A stretch of 60,547 nucleotides of DNA, counting the filler, from Sluysia triapertura (Eukaryota), in the NCBI GenBank assembly GCA_046118255.1. It is 5 parts of 5 records of this genome, joined end to end, with 100 filler letters (N's around TTAATTAATTAA, not from the genome) between each part and the next. Parts side by side here need not be neighbours in the genome. Positions count along the whole stretch, not along the records: positions 11,338 to 24,082 come from JBJNIA010084474.1; 4 more parts are not named here. One strand, written 5' to 3'. Under the pieces are notes generated by a model. The model did no database searches, was not told the DNA's origin, and saw nothing but the letters and a program-made list of their open reading frames with translations. The translations under genes were made by a program, and so were the position numbers. This document shows, piece after piece, positions 222-59,944 of the stretch. Numbering within the stretch: position 1 is the first letter of the stretch; each line of letters starts with the position of its first letter.

Positions 222-2152
222 CTTAATGAGCATAAATAGCACAATAAATAATAATATTATTATTACTTTTAATAGCAATTTTTTTACGTAATCCTCAATT
301 ATACTTTCTAACGATGCTTAAAGTTATAAATAAAGCATTATTTCTATTACAACTTTGACCATTGTGAGCGTATATTTTAAATATTACAATCATCATATAA
401 TGCTTAACCCATTCGCTGCCAATCACGAATATAGTCGTGATACTTTCAATATTATTATAACGTACAACTTGTGGAGTTTGCAAACCTTTTATGGCCACAA
501 ACATAAATATATGTGTTTTTACAAAAATTCAGAATACGTCTATTTTTTATCTTGGCAGCGAATAATTTGTAAAAGCCTTCAAATTACGTTAAAATTAATT
601 TTTCGAATGGAATGTGAGTTTTATTAATTTTCTAAACCCTCTTTTTATCACAAAACTACATTTAAATCTACAAAAATGCTTATAAAATATAAATGTACAA
701 AATATAAAAACACAAAAGATGAAATATTGCATAAAAATTTAATTTTAATTTAATCAAACTATTTTCCACTAATTATCATAATCAATTTTAGACCATTAAT
801 TTACTTTACAATGAATACTTTGACCGTTACTTTAGAAAGTATTTCCATCTTTGTTCGGACTGTATTTGTCAATAATTTATCTTTTAATTCGACTTATAAA
901 TTATTTGTATGTCATTATCAAACTTATACAATATCATATTTAAATTTTAAAATTTTTCAGTCCCTATTTACTACACTCAATAAAAACCCATCTCTTTCCC
1001 TACCATTATATTATATCATAAATACTACATACATATACGAAATCTCATATTCAACACATACCATAAATCAATTAATAAATGTAACAAATTAATTTTATTA
1101 ATTTTTCATCATCATCATCATCATTATTATTATCATTATCATTATTATTATTAATAATATCATTTTAAGATTCCATTATTTCTGTTTTAATATTATACTG
1201 TACCTCCATACCTTCATACATTATTGTCTTGATGTTTTAGATATTCAAATAGATACTAATTTCAATATTTAGTTAAAATTATAAATGGTATTATTAAAGC
1301 AAGTGAGAACGTAACAAATTATATTATATTGAACTGGTTGAACTGCCAAATCAGATTGTCAAAATGTTAATAGTTGATTTAATCGAAGTGGTCATTGTCA
1401 AATGTTTTTTGAACAACAATATCAAATCACTGATATGACAGTTCAAATTAACTATCAGATCCTTGATAAAGTGAAACGATATGTGTGTAACAATAATCAT
1501 GTTTTTATTTAATAACTGGATAGATCATTCCCTCGTAAAGCAGAATTTTAAAATTAAGCGACTTTTACGAATGAATTTGAATTCCAAATTAATTTAAAAA
1601 TCTCAATAAACTCAAAACATAAAAATATTGTCAAATCTTATTTCTTTCTTCATTCGAAATGTGAAGTATTTTTGATTACAATATTTAATTAAAAATTAGG
1701 TTAAATTAGATAATTTATTTATTTAATTTTTTATAAATTTCCATACCCTTCTTGGAATTTATCAATCAGTATTTGTGTTAATATATTATCTAAGTTTCAA
1801 ACGATTGTTCAATTTTATTCAAGTTCTACCTCCATAGTCTTCATTGTGTCACATTTATTAATATCTTAATTTCGAATTAATTCAATAATTTATGCATATT
1901 GTCAGAAAATCCTGTTTCTTTCATTAGCAAATATGAAAATGATTTTTATTAATGTAAAAATTTGTTATCTGATTTTGAACATTTAATAAATTAAAATAAT
2001 TACCATATTCTAACGTGCCACAAGGAACCCTACTTTCCAAAACTTACTATTAGCAATTTGTAGATTTCTTTGTACATTGATGGTAGTATAAATGTTATTA
2101 AATTACACCATTTCATATTTGTATAGCTTGTAACATAATATTTGTAATATTT

Positions 2153-6311: not shown

Positions 6312-8027
6312 TGTGATGGCCAACCTTTTCATTCAAAATTTAAATCATTATCACACATACTTAATATCACTTTCTTAGCATTTCACATTTTACTTTTTCA
6401 GATTCATTAAAATTCTTTAACATTTTAAAACATTTTAAACTCATTAAAGTTTTACTCAACATCTAAAATCATCGAATGCATACTTCAAAAGTTTATTCAA
6501 AACATTTCAAGCTCACAATTTTTCAACGTTAAATCATTAATATCACTGAAAAACATTAAATTCACATTTCAAAATCATTTTAAATACTATAATCAAAATG
6601 GAATTTCTTTTAACATCTTTAACTAAATTGTTACCTTTTTTCTCATTTATACTATGTAAATTCTTTTAAAAATTCAATAAGAATTAGAAGAAAAGTAAAG
6701 AAATTTTATTTCAAGAATTTAATTTATTTTATCTTAAGAACAAAAATAATGTTAAAAATTTATGTTTTGATTAACTTTATTTATTTTTATTATGTATTAT
6801 TTTATTTTTATCATTTATTTTAAGTTATTATTATTAACATTATTATTACTAAGTTTTATTTTATTATTCATTATTTAATTTGTCATTTTATTTTATGTTA
6901 TTATTATGCATTTTATTACTGTTAATTAGATTTACCAACATTCACTCTAGTATCATCAATTAATGTTTTAATGGCCATTATCATCAGCATTTTTATCATT
7001 ATTTCGGTTGTCAGTGTGGACAGTTACTTAATCTTTTTAATAAAATCTCATTACATTTAACGTCAACATATCTATTACTTAAATGTTTATTTGTCATTGG
7101 TTTTTATGTGGCAATAGTAACATTAAAAATAGTAACAGCATCTGTTCAAAATAAATAAAATTCAGAATTAGAAAATTACTTTTGTACTTAATGAAAAATT
7201 TAATTTGTTATAAGGTCTAGATTATTAAAAATGAATCGTAAAGGTCAAAAGTTAATTCATTGTAATTGTAAAAGATTAGCCTTTCACAAAATTCATCTGA
7301 GATCAAACAATTAGTAATAAAGAAAAAAGCATATTTTGATGATCAACTTGAAATTCGTATCATATCTCCGATACGATACGAAACCCAAATAATAGATCTT
7401 GATCACTATTTTTAGTAGAAAATAAATTTAGTCCTGCATATTTGATCGAGTTAATGTTGAAAAGTGATCATAATAGCGACAAATGTTTAGAACAAACTCA
7501 AAACATCAGTGATGTACATGCTTTAACAAATTCAAATACTAATTATGATGCCATGAAATTATGTTGTTCAATTGATGCATCTACAAAATCGATAACTATT
7601 GTCGTTACAAGTTCTACACTTCAATATTTAAATTTATCCGATTTAGTAATGCCTTCTCGTATTCCCATATATCAATTCTCGACTCAAACGCAAATTGTAA
7701 TTCGAACGAAATCATCTGTTGATTCATTAAATGTTAATCAATACAAATCAGCACTTAATTTAGATCCTTCCCATGCATATTTATTATCAAGTAACATTCC
7801 TGTAATATACTTGACAGATATAAATTTTGATCCAACATTCTCACATATTGCAACAGAGATATAACAACAACCGATTTGGTGATTAACGCAACTAACCATG
7901 ATCAATTCGTACCTACACACCAATTAAAATAGAATTCCATAAAAGGATAATTCAGAATGACGTGGCACCTGTCTACATTGCATATCGTTAGATGGAAGAT
8001 GTTCAAAGTACGGTTTTAAATGCAAAT
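6312..8027 (+). mobile_element. TGT-terminated cargo element, copy A (arm + spacer + regulatory module + CCCH gene); cut by N gap
   Basis: Starts TGTGATGGCCAACCTTTT; C/A-rich arm to ~6650 shares AATATCACTGAAAA(A)CATTAAATT with 42740-42762; AT spacer; TTGTC-N6-GACAG at 7008-7023; cargo ORF from ~7231. Confidence 0.7.
7231..8027 (+). pseudogene. Intronless decayed CCCH zinc-finger gene (cargo of copy A)
   Basis: Fragmented frames including ORF 7442-7864; after a 1-bp frameshift the end reads TWHCLHCISLDGRCSKYGFKCK(gap), homologous to TWHCFYGIIQNGECYRYGRNCIYGH at ~41345-41420. Confidence 0.65.
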
Positions 8028-11078: not shown

Positions 11079-11237
11079 TGTGTTGGCCAACTCACTGACC
11101 TAAATAAATTTCACAAAAAATTCTGCCTCAAACGTATTAAAATCTTATAAACTTTCAAGCATACATTACACATCTTTAAATCCATTTAAAACTAACGCAA
11201 CATAACTAAAACCATATTTTCAACAACATATAACAAT
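11079..11237 (+). mobile_element. TGT-terminated element, copy B (terminus and start of arm only)
   Basis: TGTGTTGGCCAACTC followed by G-poor, C/A-rich sequence up to the segment end. Confidence 0.6.
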
Positions 11238-11337
11238 NNNNNNNNNNNNNNNNNNNNNNNNNNNNNNNNNNNNNNNNNNNNTTAATTAATTAANNNNNNN
11301 NNNNNNNNNNNNNNNNNNNNNNNNNNNNNNNNNNNNN
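11238..11337. other. Artificial scaffold linker 44N-TTAATTAATTAA-44N
   Basis: Exactly 100 bp with stops in all six frames; identical at four places in the window. Confidence 0.97.
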
Positions 11338-11417: not shown

Positions 11418-11975
11418 GTAGAAAAACCAGATGAATGGTTACGTTATGGCAATCCGTGGGAAAAAGGTCGTCCAGAATATTCTTATCCGATAAATTTTTA
11501 TGGTTACTGTATAGATGATAACCAAGGTAAACGAAAATGGGTAGATGCTAATACAGTATTCGCTATGCCTTATGATACACCTGTTCCTGGTTATCGCAAC
11601 AATACATGTAATACATTACGATTATGGTCAAGTAAAGCGCCAACCAGTTTTAATTTAGGTACCTTTAACACTGGAGCTTATATTGATGCTGTTTGTGAAA
11701 GAAATAATGCGGAAAATATTTCTCGAGTTTTATATCCAAATGATAACTTCTTCGAAGGCAAAGAACTGCGTTTAAAGCAACAATATTTTATGGTGGCAGC
11801 TAGTTTACAAGATATTATTCGTAGATATGGTAAAGGAGCTGGTGGAGCATCTAGAACGAGCTTCGATGAATTTCCAGATAAAGTAGCAATTCAGCTGAAT
11901 GATACTCACCCTAGTATAGCTATACCAGAATTAATGAGGATTTTACATGACTTGGAAGGAATGGAATGGGAGAAA
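11418..11975 (+). CDS. PYG: Glycogen phosphorylase, internal exon (N-terminal half)
   Basis: TAG|[16 protein letters not shown]...[13 protein letters not shown]...[26 protein letters not shown]...[19 protein letters not shown]...MEWEK|GT; intact, with phase-0 introns at both ends. Confidence 0.97.
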
Positions 11976-12062
11976 GTATGTTTTAGTAATTTATTCTTAA
12001 TGTTTGACTTTATATTGACAAAGTTTGTTTTTCCCAATTACAACAGTCCTTAAACTTTATTA

Positions 12063-19661: not shown

Positions 19662-20175
19662 TTAAAATTCAGTATAGACACCATCATTCGCCACCAGTTT
19701 ATCAAATCGACCAGGAATCGCATCAATTGATTTCACAAGAAACTCGTGCGAGATGAAAGCCATAACTTCACATATTCGTCCTTCAAGTTCTTCCAAATTT
19801 TTTGGTTTTGTTGAATAGACTTTCTTTTTTAACCAAACGCGGAGAAAAATGTCGCATGATGTTAAGTCAGGACTTCTGGATGGCCTTTTGTACGAACCAC
19901 GACCCATCCATCTTCCAGGAAATTTATCATTGAGCCATTCACGAACAATGGGGAGTTCCATCTTGCATGAAAATCAAATCTTCAATATTATCCCAATCAT
20001 GCTCAACATATTGAGGTACCTTTCACATTCATAGATCACGAAGGAACCCTGTGATCATAAGTTTTTCATGACAATTCTTGATATTCTTTGGGTCATGTTT
20101 TCTCTTAATGAATCTCCAAACTTCGTAACGTGTAGCTATCTGGACACATTCTTGTAGTGTAAGACGTCCAACCAT
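19662..20175 (-). mobile_element. Tc1/mariner (IS630) superfamily transposase relic, DD37D/DD41D-like
   Basis: FMQDG, VREWLNDKFPGRWMGRG, RSPDLTSCDIFLRVWLKKKVY and LEELEGRI motifs with frameshifts. Confidence 0.85.
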
Positions 20176-20426
20176 TTTTGTAGGGTTTTGAAATTTCAAA
20201 CAAATTAATTAAAACAAATTCACAAAACTGATCTAAAAAGAAAACGATAGCATAGATTAAGTTGTCATACGTTAAGTAAGATATACACAGAAGTTGAGCA
20301 ACTTATTACGGTATTTGAATTAAATTGTAGATATTTGAAAATATGAAGTTACTTTTCATAATTGCTCAATTACTAATTAACAATATGACATACTGAATAC
20401 ATTTCTTGTATCTTTACTTATATTAG

Positions 20427-20748
20427 TGTGCTTATTGTACAAAATATTGTTGTAATTACAGCACCAGCAACGCCAGAAATTGTTCTGAATAAAAAATGTG
20501 TCAAAACCAATAGTAATCCTTCGATTATAATTGGTAGTGTTCCATCTAGAAGCGACAATTCGACAAATTTTCAATTTCAACATCAACAACAACAACAACA
20601 CACAAATAATTATGCTAATGTCGATGAATCATCTTCTGCTTCGACAACAATTTCATCGACTAATTCAAGAACAACCTATCAATCATCTAGACAAGTCTCT
20701 TCGGCAAATACGAAACGCAATATTCAAAATACCCATTCCTACAGTATA
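20427..20748 (+). CDS. Unidentified Ser/Thr/Gln-rich exon
   Basis: TAG| open frame VLIVQNIVVITAPATPE...HQQQQQH...HSYSI |GTAAGT, then a 52-bp intron to TAG at 20800. The next frame (20801-21004) is open but may derive from a Tc1 HTH. Confidence 0.55.
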
Positions 20749-21399
20749 GTAAGTTTAATTTTATTGTTTAATTTAAAGAAATATTAAACCTTATTTGTAG
20801 AAGCTCTATCTAATCAACGACAAGGTCACATTTGACAGTGAATCAAACTTCGAAAAAATCCAAGTAATTAAAATGAGTAAAAAAGAACTTGCTGAAGAAC
20901 TTGAAATCTCCGTACACCCAGCGGAACTCATGGTTCACATTAGAAATACGAGGAATATGTTTATGTATCATATTCTGGTAGAAATTGTAAATAATGTGTT
21001 TTGAACCTTTTTCCGAAAGAAGACTTGCAGAATTATCTAAATAACCCTTCTGAATTAAAATGATGTTTGGTATCAAACTTTCCGATACAATTCAATGTTT
21101 TAAAATCTTTCACTTCTTACTAAGGTCTAATGTAAATTCGAACTGTTCAGCCTATTCCATTCTCGCTCTCGCATCTCCTTCCATTCAACGTTGAAATGCT
21201 GAAATGCTTGCAGGAGAACACGTAGTCGCTTTCGTAGATTGTAGACTCCTAAAATATAACAAATAAAAATTAAACAATGATTGAATATTAAAGAATATTA
21301 TTAATTTAAGTATGAAGTGCATTTAATGATTTGAGTATTAAGGACAACATCATTGTGATTCTCATTACGTATCGAATTGTTCATTTTTTGGACATCGTT

Positions 21400-22600
21400 G
21401 GTAGCCTTTATAAGATTGGTCATGGATGATAATTATGTTGGTACCAATATAACTAATTTGATTGACGGTATGGTGAAATTTGCATGAGGATCAGAATTTG
21501 CTGCATCGTCCTAAATTGTTGGACTGGAATTGGAATTGTCCTAATCTGATTTTCCTGATTTGAGATGGTTTTGGTTATAGATGCAGTTGTTAAGGAATTA
21601 TTGAAAGGATTCGAAACCTTCGAAATAAATCTTTCTCCCATAGTAATAATTGCATTCATATAAGTTTTATCAATGTAACGAGGAATACTTGGTAAAAATC
21701 ATATAACACTAATCTTAGCCACCAAGTCAAAATCTAATTCTGCATTATTAATTTCTTTTAAGTTCGTGTATAAATGAAACATAAGATTGTAAAATATCTT
21801 GGGCATCTTTACATTACTATTCAATTCTGTTGTAATGATGATTAAAGATCGCATAACGCGCCAAACATTTAAAAAAGGAAACGCATTGATATACATTAAA
21901 TTTTTACTTATGAATTTGATTAAATTACAACGCCAGGATGAATTAAGAAGTTTGAAACCTAATTTAGTTGGTAATTCGTCGATTCGTATAATATGTTGAC
22001 TAAATTTGATTGTATCATTTGTAAAAACGAACCAACTTTTAATGCTTCTAATGGAATATTAAAATTACTAAAATCTAGGATTTGCAATATCATACAACCA
22101 GTAGACAAAGGTATAATTGACGAGGACCGTTGACAGTGAAGTACTTTCGAAATTACCGGTTTATTTCCAAACTTCTCCAAAATTACAAAAGCAGATTGAA
22201 TATAGCTTTAAATCTTTCAATGTGTCACCGTCTTTGTTGCACCATGATTTTGGAATATTCGAAATGTATAAATTTGTTTGAACTTTTTCGTTTTCATTAG
22301 GATATTTAACAGTATAATTTGAATAATTTTGTTGAATGTATAAGACTGTCTCGAGCATCATCTGCAGTCATGCGGTTATAAACTTCACACTTGCCGTCTT
22401 CTTCGATGGATACTTTAACAGACCTTACTTGATTTTTATCCTTAGCCAATTCCATTATATTTTCATCGGTAAAATGAGACGGTAATCCTTTCAAACATAA
22501 ATTCGTTTTCGATACTTTACCAACAGTGTCACATTATTTGTCGTGATATTTTTATTGCTGACTATCAACACAGTCGGTTGTTCCATCATTAATAAATTTA
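21400..22600 (-). pseudogene. Intronless decayed RBMS/shep/SUP-26-like tandem-RRM gene (cargo of copy D)
   Basis: VSKTNLCLKGLPSHFTDENIMEL ~ RBMS1 [33 protein letters not shown] ~ PTNLYISNLP; LEKFGNKPVISKVL ~ LKPFGQVISTRIL; frameshifts, no introns. Confidence 0.8.
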
Positions 22601-22933
22601 TCATTTTTTGTCCAATTTCTACACAAATTAACAAAATTGATCGTTATTTTTATTGAATGATAAAAATTGGTGTTTTTTGATTTTCTTTTTTTGAATTAAA
22701 ATTTTTATTTATCTTTTATTTTGAATATTTAGCACGATTTTTATTTTACTTGATGATGTGCTACTATTGGTCTGTATTTGTCTTGAAATTGACTGATATA
22801 TTTAGCTCATCAAAAATCACTTCGAGCCAATCATTAAATTGCATTAATTAAGTACACTATAGATAGCACGTTTAGCATGTCATATTACACTAAATGTGTC
22901 TGCATGCTTCTATTTTTTAATGATGTCCATATT

Positions 22934-23132
22934 GATTGGACGTCCAAGCACAGCAAGTAAAATTACGATGTAAAAATAGAACTGATAGGACGCCCAATCA
23001 ACTGTTGTGTTAATGTTATTGGAATTGTAAGAATGTATGCATGTGTATTACAAAATACTAAATATTGAGCTATACATGTTCTGTGTACTATTATTATTGA
23101 TTATGTATTAAGCAACTGTCATTTGCCGACAG
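22934..23132. promoter_or_regulatory. Palindromic module of copy D (inverted CCAAT pairs, CTGTC-N7-GACAG)
   Basis: GATTGGACGTCCAA 22934-22947; TGATAGGACGCCCAATCA 22983-23000; CTGTCATTTGCCGACAG 23116-23132; located between the arm and the cargo gene start. Confidence 0.6.
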
Positions 23133-23861
23133 TTTACCAAGTGATGTGAACTGATTTTAATTAAAACTGTTGGTTAATGACAGGTTAAATGAGGTGATAG
23201 CAACTAATAATAATGCTAATAATATTTATTACAATAATTAAAATTAATAATAATAAAATTAATACATAAATTCTTATAATATGTTTCGTTCTTTGCATGA
23301 TCTTTCTTTAGCTAATTTAAATAAAATTCTTTCAAAAAAAATACGTATAAATAAGATCATTTTAAATGCATAAATTTATTTCTTTTAAATCTTTTCGGAA
23401 TCTTTTCTTTTCTTAAAATATAAAAATTTCCTGGCAAAAGAAATTAATTAAAATTCTTTTAAAGATCTTTACTACAAATTAATTTACACGAAGTTCTTTT
23501 GATTACACTATTTTAAATTGATTCTGAATTGTGATTCTAATGTTTTTCGTTGATATACAAGATTGGATATCGAAGGATTGTAAACTTAAAATATTTTGAA
23601 TTAATTTTGACGTTTTCTACGATAATTTAAGATGTAAATTGTGATTCAAATGTTGTAGGATTGTGAGATTTAGATGTTTTAAATGAGATTTGAAATGTAT
23701 ATTAATGGTTTGAATGTAAGAATGATTTTGATGTTTTGAAATGAAATGATTTTAGAGGACCGAAAAAAGGATGTATATAAATATAAAATGTTAGTAAATG
23801 AGATATTATAAATGAAATGATTATTTTAAAATTCTTTAAGTTAAAAAGGTTGGCCACCACA

Positions 23862-24082
23862 GAATTAACTTTGACGAAAATCATATTAATAACCGCACTG
23901 ACTGGACCAAGATAATATTCTCAGATGATTGTTGTAAATACTATTGTCATCATCTAAAGGATTCAAAAGATAATTTGTGGTAGAAGATCAACTATGATAT
24001 GGAAATGCCATAATTTATGATAAAAAGCTAGCTTTACGTGTGGTTCCATCAACTCTTAATGGTGATAAGTACTATGATTTGA
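23862..24082 (+). mobile_element. Tc1/Tc3-like transposase relic
   Basis: RINFDENHINNRTDWTKIIFSDD (cf. RLEFA..H...DWSKVVFSDE), TMIW, STLNGDKYY. Confidence 0.75.
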
Positions 24083-24182
24083 NNNNNNNNNNNNNNNNNN
24101 NNNNNNNNNNNNNNNNNNNNNNNNNNTTAATTAATTAANNNNNNNNNNNNNNNNNNNNNNNNNNNNNNNNNNNNNNNNNNNN
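24083..24182. other. Artificial scaffold linker
   Basis: 44N-TTAATTAATTAA-44N. Confidence 0.97.
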
Positions 24183-26130: not shown

Positions 26131-27269
26131 TTTATTTTACATTTGTTTAATTGTTTATATAGAGCTGTTTTAACCATTTGTTTATTATTAATTAATATTA
26201 TTTGTTTTCAATTAACTTTTAATTATCTTTTTAATTGCAGAAGATTACAGAGAAAATCTTTTTTAGTTTTAACATTTAATTTCTTGATAATTTCGATGAT
26301 ATCTTTAGCTATCTTACGTAATAAAAGAAATTAGTGATTTAGATGTAAAGAAAAGAATTTGAAATAATAATAATTATTGTAATAATAATTATAATAATAA
26401 TTATATTTTATATTAATTATAATAATATTAATACTCACAATATAATAACAATAATTATGAAGTTGGGATTATGTATTGGCAATGTTTATATGATGATAGT
26501 GATGTTATACGACAGTTATAAGGTTAAAGATAGATTACATAATAAAGACAATGTATCATAAGTTGTTAGATGTAGCCCGAGTGGTAAGTCACATGATTTA
26601 TAAAGACGACACTGATCGAGATTGTGAAAATGGACTAGTATTAATATGTCACAAAAAATGGTTACAACCGACAGAATTAAGGCTGTTCACACTTTTCATG
26701 TACATTTAATTTAATTCTAACGATATTTACCTTGTTAATTAACGAAAAGGTACATGTATCTGTTGCTATACGTATTGTCAATACTTATGATTCTTAAATT
26801 TATATCTTTATAACTACATCTATATAAGATTAGGTCTATCGTTTGATATTTGAAAATTTATATTACAGAAAGATTTGAGTTTTACATTAATTTGAAATTT
26901 TGCATTTAAATTATCACATTTCATTTTTATTATGTTATGTAACACGTTCATTATAGCTTTAAAGTTGTTAAGATTGTTGATTGAATTAGGTATGAAAATA
27001 TTTCGAAACAAATGTATATACCTATTATTAGCAGCGTTGCTTAAACTTACGATTATATAATTCATATCTTTAAAATCACTTTTATATAGGACTTTAAATA
27101 TCTTAAGATTTAGTCTTCCAATATTTATGTTATAATAGAGCTTAAATTTTATTTTATTTAAAAATTTAGGATTTAATTTATAATAAAACGTCTCATTACG
27201 AAATAATTTATTTATAAAACATTTATTCATAAAACAAAAATATAATGTACTAATTTTCTACTAATATTT

Positions 27270-27592: not shown

Positions 27593-27860
27593 TTTAAGGG
27601 TTCAAAAATTTAATAAAATTTAATATTAAAACAAAATATTTTTTGAGTTTATTTATATATTCTTGAAGCGCTGATGTCATTTTTTCAAAAAGTGTGGTGT
27701 TCGTTAAAAAAGTATTCGTTAAGTAGAGATTTATTAAATCATAAGGTTTGTAGAATCATAAAACACGAACCCCAATATACTTCTATACTATTAAATAAAA
27801 ATATTAAAATAATAAGTTATGTTCAAAACTAAATAACGGCATCGAAATCATATCACCTTT

Positions 27861-28920
27861 ATGTTGTATTTGTCACGTAAAACTTATATTCAGAGAACAG
27901 AGAATTATTCCAGATTTAAACTGGAAACAACGCATGTATTTGAATTCTCGAATCAAACATTCATAGCCCATTTCTATCGCATTAATAATGTTCCTTACTA
28001 CTATATTAAACTAATATACAAACCTTTCAATCATCAATTTAAAGATTATGAGTACATGTCCTGGAGTTCTTTTGATTACCTTACCTTCACTTATTCTAGC
28101 AACCATCAATTCATAATTACATTCCCCATCAATTTAATGCGCAAGGCCATTCAACTCTTTCATAGCACTTTGAATTCACAAAAAACCCATCACATTCAAA
28201 ACATATCAAACACACATATAGAGTATGCTAACGTGTTGATCTGTATTGTACAATTGTATGATGGAGAAAAAAATACTTTGATCATTAAATTATTTTCGAA
28301 AATTTGTCATTTTCGTTGGTTCTGTTGATATTCATTTTCTTATCTTGGTTTTTTGTGATTCTATGATCAATTCCCCTCATTCTTTGCTTCTCTTTCAAAA
28401 TATCATAACATTATCAAACTGACAATTCGATAAGTTATCAGCATACATTTCTTTAGTACTATCATTATTTTCAAAGCCATTTTGAGGATACGCTATCATA
28501 AATATATTTGAAACTCTGCGTAATTATTTTCAAGACACATTTACGATGAGGATGATGTTTGAGCTTTAAGTCTAAAATGAAAGGGTATTGATATTATTAG
28601 TAAAATAAGTTTTGGTCATATAGGCACATCAAAATGTTATTAATTAAGTAGTAGTAACTCAGAGCGAGATTTGGTTTATAAGAAGGATAGAAAGCTGAAT
28701 AAATCCAGATTCATCAATTGTCTATTGAGTAATGCATCTTTGTTTTGGCTTCCCATTTTTTATCTACTTGGCCAAAATAATCTTAAAATGATGAACACAA
28801 AAACATTTTTACGAATGAATATTATTTTAAAACTATCGAAGAAAAATTTCCCAGTAATGCCTTAGATGATTTTCTATTTTCTGGTAAATGGAATTTCGTT
28901 CACTTTTGTTATGTTTCGTA
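27861..28920 (+). pseudogene. Unidentified intronless ORF/pseudogene
   Basis: 155-aa ORF followed by further coding-like frames with stops; no recognisable motif. Confidence 0.3.
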
Positions 28921-35981: not shown

Positions 35982-36081
35982 NNNNNNNNNNNNNNNNNNN
36001 NNNNNNNNNNNNNNNNNNNNNNNNNTTAATTAATTAANNNNNNNNNNNNNNNNNNNNNNNNNNNNNNNNNNNNNNNNNNNN
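35982..36081. other. Artificial scaffold linker
   Basis: 44N-TTAATTAATTAA-44N. Confidence 0.97.
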
Positions 36082-37700: not shown

Positions 37701-40172
37701 TTAATAATAATGAATTAAGTTCATCTTTATTTGCAACATAAAACACAAACAAAAATAAACACGAAATAAAATAGACAACAATGTTATTAAATACTGTCAT
37801 CGTTTTTGTGTATCTTAGATGCACTAGTTCATACACTTCTATAAAACATACCATCCAACCCGTATAGGGAACGGTAAAGTGTTCAATAATTCTCTGCTCC
37901 GGAGATGTTAACTTCTTGTGAAAGTCACATAAATACTAAGAACATACTTTAAAATGAAGCATATCTTAAAAATGATCTATGATAAGTATTCTTACTACAA
38001 TCACCTACTAATGGGTAGCTACTTGAAAATGTCGTATTTTAATTATAAAAATTATTTTTAATTTTGTCGGAATCAACTGCAAAATTGACAAAATCTTTTA
38101 ATTACGCATTATTATTATTATTAATTTATTATAATGTGAATTGAAGTGTCCAAATATTACTACAGTTTATTTAATAATAAACTTTATTATTACGTATTCA
38201 TTATTTGATCTTACAACACATCCATTATTACAGTTAACCGTTTGAATATTTACGTTATTATATCTTAAAACTTTCATTAATTGACATTTGTTATTGTAAA
38301 CACTAAAATAAGAACACTTTAAAGGCAATCACAAAGAAACAAAATATAAGTTGTCTATGAATAGAACATAGAATGTTAAGGGTTAAAACAATCAAAGCTT
38401 CTTATCAATATAACATAAAAATAATTAAATGCAATTGAACATCCGAACCTTGTAAAAAACATGTATGACAAATATTTATAACATTAATTTGATTTTCCAT
38501 AAATTTTACTGATTATTTCTAAGTCAAAAATCAAAAAAATATCAGTTATCTTAAAATAGTGGGCTGAAAAGAAAATGAATCTTACTGAATTATTATAATT
38601 TTAAAATCAAGATTTGAGTTTATACTGTATACTACCTATTTCTGCATGATTTAGTGGAAAATGAGACGATAAATTAATTGTTTGTTATAGTGTAAATTAA
38701 ATATACTATCATCATAAAATGTAAATTATATACTAAATATTTTCACTATATAGGAACGCTTTTTCTCAAAAAAATAAGACATGGATAAATCAAAAATTTC
38801 CAAAAAAAGCAATATCGAAATTTAAATTTAAGAAATATGGAAAGTGCAAAACATTCAAAATTTATTAGTAAATGAATTCATTTTTCTTAATTAATTAATT
38901 ATTTATATCTATGTATTACATTATTGCTAAAAAGAGGTTGAATTAATCGGACCAATGATAATTTTATCTTTATTAGGTTTGTATTAAACCGAGGACTAAA
39001 ACACTCTAATTGTAAACAAAATCGCAAGCAAACATCAACACAAAATAACACATTCCTTACAAATAAGATCCTAAACAAACTCCAACGCAATCTTACACAA
39101 AATATCAAACAATATACATAAATCATAAACACAAATTTTATAATGTCACATTCTTTAAAATCTTAACTTCTAGTTAAAATTCTTTGTACTCATTATTGTT
39201 TGAAATACTGTCGTTATTTATTTATTTTTATTTCATTGATAACATTGATATGCGATCAAACATTTATATTTACAGATGATAAGAAATTGTACCTTATGCA
39301 TCATCATTATTATTTTTTTATTATTATCATTATTGTGTAATTAGATTAATTTTTGTCGACAAAGATTTCAATATTTTATGATTTATTAGGATTTCCTATG
39401 TAATACGTACATAAATAATAAATAATGAAACCGTAAAATATTTTAACGTAAATGAAGTTAAATTACAATATAAATATTAGGTAAACATAAATGTACATAT
39501 GGTTAACAGATGTTAAGTTTTAAATGCGAATTAATTATATGGTATGAAACAATTTCTTAATTTCATTCGTTTTTACAAAAATAAAATATTATTATTATTA
39601 TTATAAATTTGAACATGTAGTACGAAAACTAAAAATAATACTAATAATTTTAATAATTTAAGATCAAAAATATTTCTTAATTCTATGTAATTTCTAAAAT
39701 AAATACTATTTCATTTTTTCAATAATACACTTGTGTATTTGGTTACATTATTAGACTTACAAAGCGTTCTTTCAAATGAGAAATTAGGGAAAGTGAATTT
39801 AGTGAAGCAAATATTATTGAAATAATGTCAAGAAAATTTTGTAGTTCTTTTTCAGAAAACCTATTATAATAATTATTTTTATTAATATTATTATTTTATT
39901 ATTTCATTAATTTATTAATGTTTTTAAAAAAATCAATATCATCTCAAGAATTGCTACCGGTAGTAAGGATTTGGTAATAATTAAATAAAATTACTTAGAC
40001 AGGAAATTAAAAAATGATGTTCTGTTACTTGATAACTTACGAATCTATAACCAATGAATTTGAAAATAAAAAGAAATGGTAATCCAACATTTTATGATTA
40101 TTTCTCAAAATCAAAGAATTTGAAACTATCATTTTATGATTAACATGAAATAACGCAGCACTTTGAACTTTA

Positions 40173-41109: not shown

Positions 41110-42110
41110 GCTTACCTCGACGAGACTAAGATTGAGATTCTAAAAAAGAATAAAAAATATAAATATATAATTCGATTTATACAGAAATAAGTTAAATTAA
41201 AATTCAGAATTACTTTTAAGTTCTCCTTGTTCCTCGAGTCTAATGATGTTGATGTCAAGCTTGATAATAAAGTACTGATCCTACCATGGTGATCACTGAG
41301 ATTCGATGTTAAACCAAACATATCCATGATTTCAAAAGCTTGATGACCATATATACAATTTCTACCATAACGGTAACATTCACCATTCTGTATTATTCCG
41401 TAAAAGCAATGCCATGTTTGTAATATTTGTCTTGATTGACGTAAGGTTGTGACTTTATACGAGATGTGATGCTACTTTAATAACGTTTCAAAAGGCCAAT
41501 CCTTGCTTTTACTTTTGACTAGTTTTTTATTGATATTGTTTTATTTGTGATCACGTATGAGTCGACATCAATAGAGACATCTATACTTTTATTTATCTTC
41601 ATCACAATATAGATTAAATCATATTGTTTAATTTGAGGTGCATGAAATAGTTCAGTCAATTTTCTTATATTAACATGTTTTACAACTTGCTTGTCTACTA
41701 ATCTATAAGTATTAATATTAAAAAGCAAAAATTTCTTAACAGACAATGTTTTTAGTTCATTTTCTGAACATTGACTATATCTCATATTCGAAGATGAAAT
41801 TAAATAATAGAGATAAGACTACAATCAATATCAGTTGAATGAGTTATAATTTTGTATAGATATTTTTATGATGATCATAATTGTTAACAAATTTTGTTTG
41901 TATCGAATTCGTTACATCGTTTAACAAAGAAATTTCGTTAGATTCGTTTTCCAGATTATCTTTTACTTGATCAATATTGACGGAACAGACAAAATAACCA
42001 TTTTTGAGATTATGTTTTTTAATAAAGTTAAATACTGAAGTTGTATCAAAATAACTAAATAACATATAGAACGGGAAACTAATTGTGTTTTCTGTATTCA
42101 TCATTGGACG
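41110..42110 (-). pseudogene. Intronless decayed CCCH zinc-finger gene (cargo of copy E)
   Basis: Collinear ORFs 41844-42104, 41519-41785 and 41112-41327; QTWHCFYGIIQNGECYRYGRNCIYGH (C-x9-C-x6-C-x3-H). Confidence 0.7.
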
Positions 42111-42300
42111 TCAACATTTAAATATTAAAAATGATAATAATTTTTAGTTAATACTTTTTAGAATGATTTTTTGTCTCCGTGAAATTATAAATTTGTTTTT
42201 ACGATAGCGATAAAAATGACACTCTTAATATTCTGCTGAAAAATAGTAATAGGTCAACGATGTGATGTAAATGTATTAACACACACTGGTTGTACTATGA

Positions 42301-42503
42301 TGATTGGACTTCCAATCCTAATTAGTGATAAAAATACAAAAGTAGAATTGATTGGAAATGATTGGACGTCCACACTTGAATGGTGATGATATTAATAGAA
42401 ATGAAATTGATTGGAAGTCCAATTTTGAGACAACAATTTAATAATATTTACTGACAATGTCAGTACTAATCAAAAAGAATTACAAAGCTGTCAAGGATGA
42501 CAG
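42301..42503. promoter_or_regulatory. Palindromic module of copy E
   Basis: TGATTGGACTTCCAATC 42301, GATTGGACGTCCAC 42360, GATTGGAAGTCCAAT ~42409, TACTGACAATGTCAGTA ~42450, CTGTCAAGGATGACAG 42488-42503. Confidence 0.6.
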
Positions 42504-45500
42504 TGGTAGTAACCACAAAATAACGATTTTAATTAAAAATATTATAATATTATAATTATAATATTATTATAATTATTATTATAATTATAATAAATAAACG
42601 AAATAATGATTATAATAAAGTAAAATATATTTAATAAAAACACAAATCTTTTCTCTTTCTGTCAACATAATCTGTCTTTAAATGACTTTCTCTTCTTAAC
42701 ATATTATTTCTGATTATGTCTAAATGGTTTCAAGATGTTAATTTAATGTTTTCAGTGATATTGGAGATTGAATTGATTTGAAGATGTCTATTCGTCGATT
42801 TAGGATGTAGTTGTGATTCTATTGTTATAAGGTAATGAGTAAATGTTTTAAATGACGTTTAAATAGACACTGATGGTTTTGGATGTAATTATGATTTGTA
42901 AGCTTGTGAATTGTAGATTGATGGTTTTAAATGTAATTGTAATTCTGATATTATGAATTATGGGTTGAAATGTTTTAAGTAAAATTTAATGTGTGTTAAT
43001 GGTTTTGGATGTCGAAGTCATTTTGGTGCAATAAAATTGTAACTTAAAATGTATTAAAATGAGAATTGTTCTAGTGGATCTGAAGAAATAAAATATGAAA
43101 AAGGTTTTGATACAAAAATTGGTAAATGTTATAGAATATGCAATATCTGGAATTAAATTTAAAATGTTTTAAATTAATTTTTATGTATGTGACTGATGGC
43201 TTTCGATGTCGAATATGATTTTGCTGTTGTGAAATTTTGTGTTTAAAATGTTTGATAGCAATGACAATTGTGAACATTCTGAAAAAATGATTTTATTGTG
43301 CATTGATGAAATAAAATTCTTAAAGTATTTGGTTGACCACGACACCGCGAACAGTTTTTGAATCAGAATTTTTTTCAACTAACCTAATAAATAATTTAAT
43401 AAAATGAGTAATTATTGTTAAATTCAAAGTCATTTCTCGAATGAGTTTATTTAAACTTTCCACAAATGCATAATTATGATATATCGCTTTACAAATCTAA
43501 TTAAGTACCTATAATTTATGCTTTGTTTTATTTAGTTATTTATTTAGTTATTAATAGTTACATATTAGGTATTTAACATTTATTTGAGAAATTACTTTTG
43601 AAAAGAATACATTTACTTGTTAGTAGTGATCGGTTATCAATACAAAAAAGAATTAAAGTAAATTAATACTAACATAAATTGAATTAACTAATCTTAATCG
43701 AACATTAACGTAAAATGAAAATAAATTCCACTTAAATATATAGATTTATTAATTGAAATTAGTTATAAAACTTATCTTTGACTGCTCAGAATTAATAATT
43801 TAATAACTTTAACTTTCTATTAGCAAAACTTTAAAACTCTTAGCTATTTAAATCTTCAAAAATGCATGTATTCTGAAATATTAAATCAAAATATTTATAA
43901 ACAAACAGTTTCACAATGGGTTTTCAAAATTGTATCAACTAAATAGTCAAGTATCTTATGTCGTACCGGTAAGTCATATTTAACTCATATTCAAGTAATG
44001 AAGGTTTATTGACACAACAATAAGTTTATACAAATTGTGAGAACAATACATGTGCAATGTATATAATATATGTGAACACAAAATCAAATTACTAAATTAA
44101 ATAAAGAAAAAATTAAATTAAGTGGAAATAAATTAAGTTGTAAATTAAATTAAATTAATAAATTAAAATGCAAAAAATAATTATTATCAAACATATTACT
44201 ATTAAACATTATCAGAAAAAATAATAACCAATAAAAAATTAGTCAGTAAATAGAGTTATTTATACAATATATTTTAGAAGTCTATTCGAGAATTTAAAAA
44301 AGCAACAATAATTACAGAGAAAAACACTAAAATTTCTATTTAAAAATCAGTAATCATCATTTTAAATTCATCAAAAGAAAACTGCATGTATATATAAAAT
44401 ACTATTTTTATTTATTTTTTAATATTAAATATAATATTAAAAATAAAAATAATTTTATTTATTAATATTAAATTATTGATACAAAAATCATCAAGTGAAT
44501 CATTTATGTAATAAAAAACTTACTAAATATGATAAAGACAAAAATTAAAAGACCTTCTACCTGCTATATATAATTGAAAGATAAAGATAAAGTCCTTTAG
44601 GTAAGCCAAACATTGTTTGTAAGTCTTTCACTATAGGCAAACCAATTTATAAATTGGCTTCTTTACATAAACAGCCTAATTATGCAAAAAGGCAACACAA
44701 TTTTATTCAACAGATTTTACGGAATTCTAATACATGAACTCTTAATTTAAATTTATTCAGTCAATGAGCATGCATTAACATTTTTTTCTGTGTAACTTCC
44801 CACCTATTATTTCAATTTAAGATTTCAAACCAGTTATAATTCGTAACTTAAAAATTTATGACAGCATATAATTTTAATACCAGATCTCTAAACTTATGAA
44901 CATCGACGTAAAATTATTGAACTTTCGATTTAGAAATACTTTGAAACTGTTTATAAATTCGTATACAATTTTAATATTTCTTACAAATATCGTCATTTTT
45001 GTAATTTTGTGCTTAACCTTTATTTAACATTTAAATTAATGGTCAAAATATGCGAATGTTTTAAAATCTTTTATGAATATTTTAATGATGAAAAATAGTT
45101 TAAGTAGTTGAGTTTAAAAAATCGGTTTACAGCAAACTTTGCGGTTTTTATGAAGGTTAATGCACTACGTCATATAGTTCTTTTCTTATTTATTTCTAAA
45201 ATATCTTTCTTGTGGTTAATCTTTCAATATCATTAATTATATAACCGATTTCATTTGTATAAATAAGACTCGGTTTTTGTTATTATTCGGCCAATTCCTT
45301 ATTTATAACATTTAATTTTATTTTTTAGCTTTGGTCATATAATTTATCTATTTACATTCGTTTTGTGTTAGCTTGTATTCATTTGTATACATAACTATTT
45401 GTTTATCGTTCATTCCGTAAGTCTTTCTTTGTTCATTAACTGTGGCACATTTCCACCTGTTTTCTAAAACCTACTTTGTTGACTCATTTTTTTCAAGGCG

Positions 45501-47737: not shown

Positions 47738-47837
47738 NNNNNNNNNNNNNNNNNNNNNNNNNNNNNNNNNNNNNNNNNNNNTTAATTAATTAANNNNNNN
47801 NNNNNNNNNNNNNNNNNNNNNNNNNNNNNNNNNNNNN
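47738..47837. other. Artificial scaffold linker
   Basis: 44N-TTAATTAATTAA-44N. Confidence 0.97.
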
Positions 47838-52925: not shown

Positions 52926-54258
52926 TCATTTGATAAAAAATATATTACAGAAACTTCATCTTAATGTTACAATTATCGCGACTGATATTTTTCTTCGAAT
53001 TTTCTTGGAAGCTTCCAAGAGTGATTTCTAGTTTTATTAATAGACAATAATAATAAAACCTTAATTTCAAATTCTGTAGCTAGTAATCATGCACATTCGT
53101 TATAAAAATATTTACATTTTACAAACATTTAATATCAATTCATTCTGCCGTGGTTACTAAATAAATTAACTGCCTCATTCAGTGCATGGTGACATAATGT
53201 TATTTGGCTAGAATTAATTTGGTAGTGTACATTCAAATTTTAATTAGTAAAGATTAATTTAGATGGAAGTGTTCGTTTTAGATTACTTCTCAAAAATTTA
53301 TAAGACATCATATTCATTCTTTTTTGCGTAAAACAAAGAAGAGAAAGTTTTGTAACAGAGATTAGAATGTTTAGAAATGTAATAGATTGGAAATCTGATG
53401 AATTCTTGGTTTATGTTTATAGGTAGAAAAAATAAATAAAGTGATACATCAAGACCAGAATATTACAGAATTGATGATTCATTTTATGTACAGTAAATTC
53501 TCGCGAGATTTGCTGAAGTTTTACGTGATGCATAATAAAGTTAATATTTTAATAGTCCAATCTAAGAAAGTTGTTTCTAACAAGAATTTAATAGTCAAAT
53601 ATTACAGTTACCTATTTTGATGTCCAGATAATTACAGTGATTTTTCAACCATTTATTTGTACACTTGTTGCAGATTTTAAGGGTTTTGTCAAAATTTCGC
53701 TCTTACCACAACTTTATTTCATAAAATGTTTTTAAATTTTTTAATAAATATTTATTTATTCGGATTTATATTCTAGTTGAAGGAAATGGTCATATTTTTG
53801 TCAAGGTTGGAACCTGAAAACGAAATATAATAATAGTAATAACAATAATGATTGAAAATAAATATATTTTGTTTAAGTGCTGACACATTTTTTATTATTA
53901 TTTTGTATGACACAAGACCGTATTTTATTACTTAATGATTTATTTAAGGTGGGAAGCCTTTTAAGAAAATATTTGTATAAACAGTAATTGTAGGCCATCA
54001 GAAAACGTAATTAGCAATTTTAAAAATAAGCAATAAACTTACGAATTTAAAGGAAGTACATCAAATTAATTTGGTGAAGTAAATTAATTTAAAATCAATT
54101 TATGTTATTGGTCACAATTTTGAGAGGTTACATAGAATAGTGCAGATTTGGATAACCTATATTAATTAACAGTTCGATAACCTGGTAATTCGGTGATTTG
54201 AAATATAGCACACTGTAAAGAAATTGATACGTCGAATCGAATCTCATAATTTTTGTAC

Positions 54259-55614
54259 GATTTGAATTTTGCAATTTTAATTTTTTACAGAAAAAACTTA
54301 TTAAATTGTTACTTAAAAATTATTAAAATTACTTAAAAAATTTAATTACTTAATAAATTACTTTCAAATAATTATTTAATAATTTTATCATTATAAAATT
54401 AAAAGAAATGTATATCAAAAATCATAAAATTAAAAATATAATACATTTATTATGTACAATTAATAACAAATACTGTATGAAAAATAATCACTGTCATATG
54501 CCACGAATTTTTTTATAAGTTAATTTCTTATAAGTTTTCCATGATTAAGCAAGGCTAAAATAGAAATAATTTTTAATAACACGTTGAAAGTTGTCTTAAG
54601 CTACGAAAAAATCATCAATTTAAAATCATTTTTATAAAGTTTTACTTTTATACTAATATAATAATTTATAGTTTTCTATATTATAATTTTTATAATTTTA
54701 TCTAACTACTGTTTCGTTTGTAATATTGGTTCATTTGTACGTACACTGAATTTTTTAAATATATTTATTGGTGTAGTATTTGCATTTATTTAGTTTAATA
54801 TTATCGCAGTTCAAAAATCATAAAAAGATCAAGTGTATATTAGTCTGCAATAGTAAGAAATATTGCTCTAGTAAACCTTTGTAATTAAAGAATTTAATTT
54901 AAAAATAAATTAAAAAATAAATTAAAACAAAGAATTACAAATTTTAAGTCAAATAAATTACTATAAAAGATAATTAATTAAAGTACAAATTATCCTCAAA
55001 TGTGTGACATTTACACTATACTTCAGTAGAAGATCCTAAACACTTAAACTATTCCATGGGAAAGAATTATATCAGATTAGAGCTAAGAAATAAACCAAAT
55101 TAATAATTTATCGGATTTCAACCACGAACTGCAGGCGAACCCAATATATATTAAATATTTTGCAATTAATTGAGAAAAAATAACCTATCCGAAAATAATT
55201 AATTTTCAAACATGCAGCATTTAATATCTTTGGATAATTTACATAAAAGTTTAATAGTATAACTACAAGAAAATGTATTAGGATAGAATTGATAAAAAGA
55301 TAAAAAGATATAATACCTACTTTATACCACTAAAAAAAGTAAAGTGGCACTTGGTAGATACGGTGACAAAAAGTGCTTATAATAAAAAAATTCGTGGCAT
55401 ATAACAGTGATTATTTTTTATACAGTATTTGTTATTAATTGTACAAAATAAATGTATTATATTTTTAATTTTATAATTTTTGATGTACATTTCTTTTAAT
55501 TTTATAATGATAAAATTATTAGATAATTATTTGAAAGTAATTTATTAAGTAATAATTTTAAAGTAATTTAATAATTTTTCCTATAAAAAATTAAAATTGC
55601 AAAATTCAAATCAT
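54259..55614. mobile_element. Non-coding element with ~250-bp inverted repeats (MULE/foldback-like)
   Basis: 54259-54519 is the near reverse complement of 55376-55614 (e.g. AATCACTGTCATATGCCACGAATTTTTT vs AAAAAATTCGTGGCATATAACAGTGATT). Confidence 0.75.
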
Positions 55615-55992
55615 AAAGTTGTAAATTTTCAGTCACTCCCACATTCACAGTGGCATCTTTTTCGAGTAAAACTATGAAATTTTCTTTTAACTTCATAAGA
55701 CCTTACACACAAATAACCAGTTCAATATTTACAGACATTTTCTTACCTGACACATCGTTTTACGTATAAACGTACTTGTAGTAACACTGTTTTATGTATT
55801 TTGCTTCAATAAACAGCCATTAGATATCGGTTAACTGGTATTGTGTTTTAAGCACCTAAAGTTATTATATTAATTTTTATTATAAAATGTATACTAAAAT
55901 ATAAAATTGCGAATTAGTTAGTTAATTTTATATTGTTAATAAATATTCTTAATTTCCGAATTTAATTAATAAAACATTTTCATATAAATTAC

Positions 55993-56231: not shown

Positions 56232-56904
56232 CGATCAAAATGAAAAGTATAGTGTGTGTACTTAGTAAATAATAATAATAGTCTATTAAATAATCTACTA
56301 TGTGCAACTAAAAATTATAAAATTAGAATGTACTTATGTTAAATTGGTAATTAAAGCAGAATTGACTGCAGATAAACGATGGAGAAATTATTGTAGGATA
56401 AGTTATTACCAAAGTCTAATAGTAGAAAAATTGCTAAAATAGAAATGAGTGTTTACTGTAAAGACAGCAAAGAAAACAAAATTTATAAATCTTGATTTCG
56501 AAAGCTAACTGAATAAAGAAGAAGATAATTAGCTAGTAAATTTGATATCCAAGAAACTATTTTTTTATATCATAAATAAACTAATAATGCAATTCTAAAA
56601 GAATATTCTATAATAAATTAATTAAAACAACTTTTTAATTTAGTCAACATTTGTTTTTCAACTGTTATAACAAATTCACATTTAAAATATTTATTCATAT
56701 TTTAAACTTCAAACACGAATAATGATATTTAATTACATTCAATTGAAAGTTTATATTTTTTTGTTTTAGATTAACTGATATTTTAAATTCTTATAGATTC
56801 TTTCAATTTACATAATAATAAACATAATATAATTTATTATTTTAACTGAATTTTCTAATTTTAAAAAATGTTCTTTATACATTGCTAAATAATATATTAC
56901 TAAC

Positions 56905-57129
56905 ATTTAATTTCTTCTTAACAATTGGATCGTTATTAATGACTTTACCAACTGCATTTATCAATTTTATTGTTAATCTGGCAATGTAATAACCAGGTGC
57001 TGCTTTACCTCCTATCATCACTGTTCTGGCCGGTATATCTATTTTGGGATCTGATTTAATTCTATTGTACAAAACAATAACATAAAGAATATTCATTAAC
57101 TGACGTTTATATTCATGAATTCTTTTTAC
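56905..57129 (-). CDS. PYG: Glycogen phosphorylase exon
   Basis: CAG|[25 protein letters not shown]...[13 protein letters not shown]...[12 protein letters not shown]|GTTAGT. Confidence 0.96.
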
Positions 57130-58499
57130 CTGTTTTAATATAATAAAAGTTATTAGATTTATGAATAAATTTTTATTTTAAAATCTACAAAAATTAGGCG
57201 TTAAAACGAATAGCTATTTGTCAAGGTTCAAACTAAATTCAAACAAAAAAAATCAATTTACAATCAATTATTATTGGTCAAATGTCAATTTACTTGATTT
57301 ATTATTAATATAAATTATTGATTATTTGATGTTTATTGATTAATTTTAATTATTACGATTTTATTATTATTGGATTCTTTTAATAATTTTATCACTGTAA
57401 GTTTATTTTATTTTAATTATTAACTTTTAATAATTTTGCTTAAAAAAGTAAAAAATTTTTTTCTAATTATGTGCTTAAAAAATTGAAATTTAAATAATTT
57501 TGTTTAAATAACCTTCAAGGTTAATGTGCGAAAGTGTATAAATACTAAATTTAAAATTAATTTTACTTAATTTATAAATTTAGATATAAATTTATAATAT
57601 TTACAGTACTTAATATATTGTACTTTCACTGATACTCCATTTTATAAGAATTTCTCCTTATAGTCAATTTCGATTATACGATCAATTTTTTTCTATAGTT
57701 AAAATAATACAAATGATTTTAATATGTATTATCATGATAATGTGGAAATATTATTTGTTTATTCTTTGTTTATTTATTTAATTGCCTGTATTTAATATTA
57801 TTCGTTTTTTTCACTTCTATTTTAATAAAAAGCTGTGCTTTTCGTTCTTGCTATGGATACATTTAAGCAGTAGTTTTATTTACCTGTTATTTAAGTGTGG
57901 CAAGTTTTATTTTGTATGAATTTTTTTCTGATTTGAGAACTTTTAAAGTTGGGAAAATGTTTATATTTTATTTCATTAAGATTTATAAAATTATATATTT
58001 GTAATTATTAATAAATTTAATCTTTAAATTAGAGTGAATACGATTTGAGAATTTACAAAAATATAAACTGATGTTTGTAGTTCGAATTTCAATTATTAGT
58101 TAAATATGTTTCATTAAGTATTTTAATTGTTATTGTTTTGGTTAAATTTCAAATTCTATTTCTAAGAATTATTCGTTAATAATTTAAGTCAACCACATTT
58201 CTTGGAAAATAAAATGTATAGTAATAGTAATTTTTTTAATATTGCTTTGTGTTTATTTAACTTCAATCAGATTATCTTCAAATGACAAAGAAAATTTAAG
58301 ATAAAGTAAAGGAAATGAAAGAAAAGATGTAAAGTTTTACTTTTTCATCATCCAATTGCCTAGTGTGCAAATGTTTTTATTCTTCGAGACTTCTGAGACT
58401 TGATTCAGTCTTTAATTAGCTTTAAAATCAAAGATGTCGGGCTAGTCAAAGTATTTTTTGATTAATTTATTAGTAGAATAATATTCCTTTCTAGAAACA

Positions 58500-59835: not shown

Positions 59836-59944
59836 TAAATTTAATATAAATTTTTAAAAGTAATTAAATGAAACAAAATTGGAATTATTAAGTTGGAATT
59901 ATTAACAATTCAAAAAGCATATATAAAACATCATTAATTTTAAC

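Follow-up and report, generated by a model that had tools for sequence, protein, structure and literature searches.

The locus at 21400-22600 of a Sluysia triapertura window (the whole stretch of DNA analysed, 60,547 nt) raises two questions: what a repeat cassette carries there, and by which route an RBMS-like sequence came to lie behind the arm of that repeat. In a first-pass annotation it had been described as a processed, intronless RBMS/shep-like tandem-RRM gene, a different cargo in the same cassette. The analysis given here leads to another description: the 23 kb locus is a decayed RRM-RRM-X-CCCH chimera in an unclassified, multi-copy, TG-ended flatworm repeat. The unit extends over about 23861-21127 (∼2.7 kb), so the span of 21400-22600 was too narrow.

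The RRM part was assigned by alignment to P0006, a 362-residue cluster member that was used as the reference for the RBMS piece. Positions 22518-22154 (−) align to this flatworm RBMS/shep-like protein with E=2.7e-23, in three frames and at 45-69% identity. RRM1 (22342-22518, −), with SKTNL at 22512, is 52% identical to P0006 and has a 3-codon deletion at RNP1; the linker and the first half of RRM2 (22154-22340, −; TNLYISNIP ... IQSAFVILEKFGNKPV; 45-69% identity) follow, with TNLYISN at about 22277 on the same strand. The best PDB match of RRM1 was human RBMS1 (E=1.9e-5), PABP being next (3.6e-3; 16 sequences matched), and P0006 also matched RBMS1 best, if not by far (6e-20 vs 2e-17). A tree of 16 rows placed the locus with the RBMS-like rows (support 100/99), nearest to P0002 and P0006, on a branch so long (0.62) that its exact place within the RBMS-like group is loose. 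Its identity in the 16-row alignment was 43-52% to five of the six flatworm-type rows, 33% to the insert-bearing P0004 and 28-30% to the other RBMS-like rows. A search of 1.84 billion representatives with the RRM query returned five matches, all five of them tandem-RRM proteins and all with coverage confined to query residues 5-69, the linker and the beginning of RRM2; three of the five matched clusters carry trematode names, and the closest relatives are unnamed. Tandem RRMs, SKTNL and TNLY are shared with RBMS1-3 and the Drosophila member of the family, Shep, as well as with flatworm P0001, P0002 and P0006 and trematode P0003, P0004 and P0009, and the flatworm RBMS linker KxxxENEKxxTNLY is shared with the locus. 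By these comparisons the RRMs belong to RBMS and to no other RRM family, as had been read from SKTNL and TNLYISN in the first-pass annotation; clustering with another family, which had been considered there, was not found. The locus differs from the RBMS family in being an N-terminal fragment fused to a CCCH gene, in being multi-copy and in its long branch.

The RRM piece is an RBMS fragment and not an RBMS gene, and this copy is dead, a pseudogene. The RBMS part is split over three frames by frameshifts near 22341 and near 22205; the frame of RRM1 has two stops upstream, and the candidate ATG (22601) does not share that frame. Clear RBMS homology stops at NKPV (22154), the exon boundary inferred from P0007; beyond it no significant RBMS similarity was detected except PLEA, and the RBMS C-terminal tail is absent. 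The junction is followed by an open in-frame stretch of 34 codons (22043-22153, −) that has no recognisable similarity, ends in PLEA and is possibly a diverged RRM2 remainder; the frame past the junction is open to codon 64. PLEA sits where the last RRM2 strand ends in the relatives (59/20000 shuffles in a post hoc diagonal test), and an anchored alignment of the post-NKPV stretch to RRM2 was not significant (14/150). Of the tandem RRMs described previously, RRM1 and the first half of RRM2 are thus clear, and no recognisable copy of the RNP1 of RRM2 was found at the locus; RRM2 appears either to be cut before RNP1 or to have a diverged second half. RBMS homology resuming beyond a retained intron was also considered and was not significant, and a shorter-protein search yielded no further flatworm exon pieces.

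Downstream of the RRM part, a degenerate CCCH finger (21470-21535, −; x-x9-C-x6-C-x3-H) was identified, which lacks the first Cys, contains one stop and keeps three of the four ligands of C-x(7-10)-C-x(4-6)-C-x3-H. With a profile of the fingers of the 43 kb and 6 kb copies, 21535-21470 scores 25.0 and is the top non-training match of 120,964 positions; this score was reached by 3/3000 shuffles of the region. With the 6 kb finger as query it ranked first of 452 sites in the window (43 vs 34). C-x6-C-x3-H occurs in the window only at 21535-21470 and in the 43 kb copy, and the same finger is present in 3/3 full cassettes. The remnant therefore indicates that the cargo is the family's own CCCH gene, still present, with RRMs added in front, and the idea of a different or swapped cargo was abandoned. 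An RRM-X-CCCH chimera had been put forward as speculation on the strength of another motif, KTYECNYYYGRK (21668-21631), and is borne out by the finger about 130 nt further on. KTYECNYYYGRK itself was rejected as a collapsed finger: it is a two-frame composite (KTY in one frame, YECNYYYGRK in another), remains at background in the profile (≤0.5) and, when the 43 kb finger was the query, came no higher than 5th-7th among some 450 sites. A further candidate remnant at 21224-21147 (CKHFSISTLNGRRC) was discarded at rank 51-128 of about 445.

Region X (21536-22042, −) appears to be decayed coding sequence of no assigned family, with a 119-codon stop-free stretch at 22058-21702. The three frames of 22154-21381 contain 8, 14 and 23 stops per 258 codons; the 8 stops of the best frame compare with a shuffle mean of 15.6, and ≤7 stops were obtained in 1/2000 shuffles. 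Region X is therefore stop-poor, which fits a decayed ORF. The frame of ∼200 codons that had been reported beyond the RRMs stands as to its length, about 206 codons lying between the last clear RBMS residue and the finger; it does not stand as one open frame, given the three RBMS frames and these stops. No Pfam, PHROG, PDB or protein-collection match was obtained for region X, a homologue search with the X frame gave 0/287 candidates, and homologue searches in viral contigs and metagenome contigs returned nothing. The 119-residue stretch was modelled by AlphaFold2 with a pLDDT of 44. Comparison of X with the upstream coding parts of the sister copies was not significant. Similarity of the whole cargo between copies was rejected as well, being not significant by DNA or protein frames (29/200 shuffles), and a p of 0.015 for cargo similarity was lost against real-window controls. 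Since X is not significantly similar to the sisters, homology of the cargo between copies rests on the finger and its position.

Behind the finger an intron of 120 nt (GT..AG; 21249-21368, −) is predicted, with a phase-compatible donor and a T-rich acceptor, followed by a predicted, helix-like last exon of 40 codons (21127-21248, −), roughly where the multi-copy unit ends on the 3' side. An intron of 74 nt is likewise predicted in the 43 kb copy, at a similar distance behind the finger, so that GT-AG introns are predicted there in both copies that are readable at this point (23 kb and 43 kb); the similarity of the 23 kb tail to the 43 kb tail was not significant (479/2000 shuffles). Because of the predicted intron at 21368-21249, the gene as a whole is probably not intronless, and the earlier description holds for the RRM piece: no intron was found inside 22518-22154. 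Directly past the 3' end of the cassette, on the opposite strand, lie single-copy exons of a gene of no assigned identity (20389-20990, +), the first of which gave no Pfam match.

At its other end the unit starts with a G-poor arm (23480-23861, −; ∼380 nt, 6% G) that carries repeated motifs of the AAAACAT/ACATC type; its end is defined, lies at 23861 and reads TGTGGTGGCCAACC. Contigs of the neighbouring repeat depart from the locus at this position. All four arm starts in the window (6312, 11079, 23861 and 43344) read TGT-N-N-TGG[CT]CAAC and then arm, with unrelated flanks, and the 23 kb arm is homologous to those at 6312 (+; z=14.7) and 43344 (−; z=6.7 vs 100 shuffles). Between arm and RRMs are a short palindrome, CTGTC..GACAG (23116-23132, −), found elsewhere in the window only at 42503-42488, and a CCAAT-box module (22827-23000, −), which is the putative internal promoter of the element. 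The module is shared by the 23 kb and 43 kb copies (z=7.5) and not detectable in the 6 kb copy (z=0.1); the pattern G[AG][AC]GTCC[AT]A[TG], derived from the former two, has seven matches in the window, all seven within them. The first-pass annotation had likewise found arm and CCAAT module in common with a copy E; this agrees with the values for the 43.3 kb copy (z=6.7 and 7.5, 100 shuffles), which we guess to be the copy meant.

A second end for the 23 kb unit, inverted or direct, was not found in the window: a search for the end motif with ≤3 mismatches gave five matches, with no partner end near 21.1 kb. No target-site duplication was found, and inspection by eye of the flanks of the facing arms at 6312 and 11079, which enclose single-copy host genes, revealed no exact duplication, the 3' end of the unit being approximate. 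Two larger pairings were rejected, namely one large element formed by the 23 kb arm with that at 6 kb or 11 kb, and an LTR pair formed by the arms at 43 kb and 23 kb: the divergence of the arms is too great (74-76%, about 140-155 nt), host genes intervene, and the flanks show no duplication. The arm motif had 35 matches in metagenomes, none beyond about 24 nt, and these were put down to chance. Very high-depth repeats are located at 23862-24082 (+), abutting the arm end at 23861, and at 19665-20208 (−), with summed contig depth up to 18,600. They gave no Pfam or PDB match; motifs in both are presumably those of a Tc1/mariner-like transposase.

The number of copies, formerly put at five, came to three finger-bearing cassettes and one arm stub in the window. 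The cassette at 41116-43344 (−) contains an arm with an internal duplication, palindrome, CCAAT boxes, decayed ORF, predicted intron and small exon. Its finger (41408-41343) is intact, with all four ligands of C-x9-C-x6-C-x3-H, and matches Pfam zf-CCCH_UNK with E=0.0048, below the curated cut-off. The finger exon could be joined in phase to a 24-nt exon (41139-41116, −) and further across 4.1 kb to a coiled-coil-like exon (37001-36897, −); this could be a tail native to the family, or else a host gene to which the copy became fused. The cassette at 6312-8027 (+) comprises an arm, a decayed ORF and a CCCH finger from 7970, and is cut by an assembly gap; with the 43 kb finger segment as query, the top non-self match in the window was the end of the 6 kb cargo (57 vs ≤38). 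The fourth arm start (11079-11237, +) has an end motif with 2 mismatches and is also cut by an assembly gap; it resembles the 6 kb arm (4/200 shuffles) and is not significantly similar to the other two. A homologue search with the 43 kb cargo gave 0/259 candidates, and an Atlas search gave, for the 43 kb ORF, weak leads of CCCH type (under 0.9), and was uninformative for the 6 kb ORF. Arm-like base composition without an end motif was noted at 38990-39160 (+) and 900-1100 (+), where similarity to the arms was mostly not significant. Scattered in either orientation between unrelated host genes, the copies are decayed in 3/3 cases.

The window around them has the GC content of AT-rich eukaryotic DNA (16-31% per kb), and it includes exons that belong to glycogen phosphorylase, NAP, THOC2 and an RNB-domain gene; Rfam and tRNA scans gave 0 matches. 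The kinship of the RRM gene suggests that the host is a flatworm, perhaps a planarian. At 11238-11337, 24083-24182, 35982-36081 and 47738-47837 it contains artificial joins (44 N, a 12-nt TTAA-type linker and 44 N), so the neighbourhood across these is uncertain. An early part of glycogen phosphorylase was found by Pfam at 11418-12053 (+), and parts that we take by eye to be later ones at 56875-60289 (−); lying on opposite strands, 45 kb apart, they could be two paralogues, an inversion or a scaffolding error. The exon at 2750-2965 (−) is presumably from a KH/Quaking-type protein, for which Pfam gave no match. Two orphan ORFs of 145 and 163 codons (26820-27257, −, and 27837-28328, +) had no Pfam match and at best a weak PHROG match (E ≥0.1), and the region of the former contains an internal duplication. 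A MITE-like element of 1.36 kb (54256-55615) has inverted arms of 172 nt with 97% complementarity.

The copy state was judged from summed contig depth in one run (X1), which is indicative only and gives no copy number. Run X1, which may stem from the source sample, was taken to be a DNA run: its contigs extend to 43 kb and fill each of the 30 bins, intronic flank among them. Summed depth was 32-57 in the unique flank, 116-600 over the cargo (21150-23109) and 5357 in the arm bin 23502-23697; over region X it was 297-356, with 26 contigs differing at 21714. At the 3' limit it dropped from 249 (bin 21150-21345) to 39 (bin 20954-21149). Ends and cargo are both multi-copy. Among the matches listed (8 of 6813), the RRM-X junction is bridged only by record 5, that of the locus itself, and by no paralogous contig.

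Whether the RRM piece is processed was judged against intron positions of the parent gene inferred from breakpoints in database gene models of other species. An intron at KCxG|YGF is seen in 5/7 independent entries: the models of P0001, P0005 and P0009 start at YGF, at DF and at M-GYGF, respectively (P0005 and P0009 being one cluster), P0004 has a 27-residue insert exactly at the site, and P0002 lacks GYGFI relative to P0006; P0003 and P0006 are full-length and hence uninformative. P0007 begins with MFVS-GVGF, which implies a second intron just after NKPL. The locus runs across the KCxG|YGF site without an intron. Contig record 6 of run X1 (248 nt) aligns over its whole length to 22252-22488 (237 nt), with 34 substitutions and 11 gap letters; its length equals the P0006 coding length over the same span (82 codons + 2 nt = 248 nt), and its depth is 174.7 vs 14-21 for the other single contigs among the matches listed (8 of 6813). 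Record 6 points to young, uninterrupted, near-identical relatives of exact mRNA length at ∼8-12x single-copy depth. Together with the crossed intron site, it suggests that the RRM piece is probably mRNA-derived and reverse-transcribed, in line with the capture from mRNA suggested in the first-pass annotation.

The reading that we favour, with a probability of roughly 55%, is capture of a cDNA into the CCCH gene and subsequent amplification of the intron-bearing unit at the DNA level. The family would be non-autonomous and dispersed, with a unit of TG-starting arm, internal CCAAT promoter and own gene, the latter encoding a finger (C-x9-C-x6-C-x3-H) behind some 230-250 codons that evolve fast and, beyond an intron, a short helical tail. 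In a first step, a reverse-transcribed, at least partly spliced fragment of a host RBMS/shep mRNA would have recombined in frame into the 5' end of the CCCH gene, giving rise, in one subfamily, to a protein of some 450 residues, RRM-RRM-X-CCCH, driven by the promoter of the element. In a second step, which we infer from the depth and the retained 3' intron, the chimeric unit would have been amplified as DNA, likely by a transposase or integrase supplied in trans and acting on the arm-type ends, as modelled for multicopy Pack-TIRs. In a third step the 23 kb copy decayed, as described above. The intact product would be an RNA-binding protein; speculatively, its targets would most plausibly be transcripts of the element itself or host silencing. 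No transposase, integrase or RT belonging to the unit was found within the window.

According to PMC8277862, multicopy Pack-TIRs, such as Ssk-FB4 of Drosophila, copy genomic DNA and are bounded by two inverted ends with target-site duplications; the survey discarded intronless captures. Shared with the locus are a host piece in a non-autonomous repeat, long and internally repetitive ends, a chimeric structure and re-amplification (PMC8277862). By contrast, a single end could be made out at the locus, its capture appears processed, and the element brings its own gene.

Arm and CCAAT module may instead be an LTR, or part of one, of a non-autonomous or giant Gypsy-type element with the CCCH gene as accessory ORF, the RBMS piece having been acquired by template switching in the particle and amplified through RNA. 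Such LTR-mediated retroposition is unlikely, if the strongest of three alternatives. Three of the four arm ends fit TGTNR, which is the Gypsy/Ginger end pattern (PMC2836005) and a weak feature alone; the 23 kb copy has a TG start and lacks a downstream direct repeat in the window. Arm depth is ∼20x that of the CCAAT module, unlike a single LTR unless this were unevenly conserved. The LTR-mediated retrocopies CG17604_r and maize Bs1 are partial, chimeric and intron-free pieces of host mRNA that join or replace an element ORF and can re-amplify (PMC5131818), which would suit the locus; no LTR pair or retroelement ORF was found there, and a predicted spliceosomal intron is retained in the element gene. 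Gag/pol gave no Pfam, PDB or protein-collection match in the cargo frames tested, with gag, RT and integrase all undetected, and no primer-binding site was seen by eye (no formal test). Burro giant Gypsy elements of planarians, which bear accessory domains, have a flatworm host and host-like accessory domains in common with the locus (PMC6431247); none of the Burro domains listed there was detected, the sizes differ (∼2.7 kb vs 30 kb), and RRM and CCCH have 0 occurrences in the main text of that paper. TGTNR ends, intron-bearing genes and added host-like domains are also features that Ginger DNA transposons have in common with the locus, as described in PMC2836005, whereas the integrase-like transposase, the 40-270 bp inverted repeats and the 4-bp duplication of Ginger were not found in the window.

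Capture at the DNA level is a less probable explanation again. It would require prior loss of the KCxG|YGF intron from the RBMS gene in this lineage, and then the copying of one genomic exon with its donor into the element by template switching or gap repair as in Pack-TIRs, without reverse transcription; DNA template switching is the proposed route of multicopy Pack-TIRs (PMC8277862). Clear homology indeed ends at the next inferred exon boundary. The donor-like GTAATT that follows at the junction (22155; a motif with a frequency of 0.3% per base) would be compatible with a genomic source as well. Against this, the frame meets no stop for 64 codons beyond the junction, and the RRM2 diagonal takes in PLEA, as if the second intron site had been crossed. 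Similarly, KCKGYGF is continuous, with no break, in P0010-P0014, other RBMS-like proteins called on contigs, whereas the closest relatives, P0001 and P0002, break at the intron site.

The least probable of the three, a host CCCH multigene family spread by ordinary segmental duplication, with the arm as an unrelated passenger repeat that inserted once upstream of the founder and was then carried along and the RRM form as a chimeric retrogene, would account for an arm far more abundant than the cargo, for genes with predicted introns (4.1 kb long in one case, at 43 kb) and for the failure to find a second end, but has against it the similarity between copies that starts exactly at the arm end with unrelated flanks, and by copies that lie in both orientations among unrelated host genes and are all three decayed.

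In its workings the 23 kb unit resembles a multicopy Pack-TIR or an LTR-mediated retrocopy, but it is filed in none of the Pack-TIR, LTR-retrocopy, Ginger and Burro classes, since the paired ends of the first two were not found, the likeness to Ginger comes down to the end pattern, and that to Burro to the host group and the carriage of additional domains. No description of such an element was found among open-licence papers.

A wider reading, which we regard as unlikely, is that an undescribed TG-ended class serves as an exon-shuffling platform, in which promoter and CCCH finger stay constant while the N-terminal module between them can be exchanged; an intact, young RBMS-RRM subfamily would then be expressed in stem or germ cells, and the stolen RRMs would protect or export element RNA or interfere with host RBMS or silencing. 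Gene capture by mobile elements in animals is known by two routes, DNA-level Pack-TIRs and LTR-mediated retrocopies. The 23 kb family appears to combine a processed capture with an intron-bearing gene of its own, amplified with an uninterrupted RRM frame. If confirmed, it would be a clear-cut example of how a flatworm repeat acquires an RNA-binding module from its host, one that can be tested on young copies.
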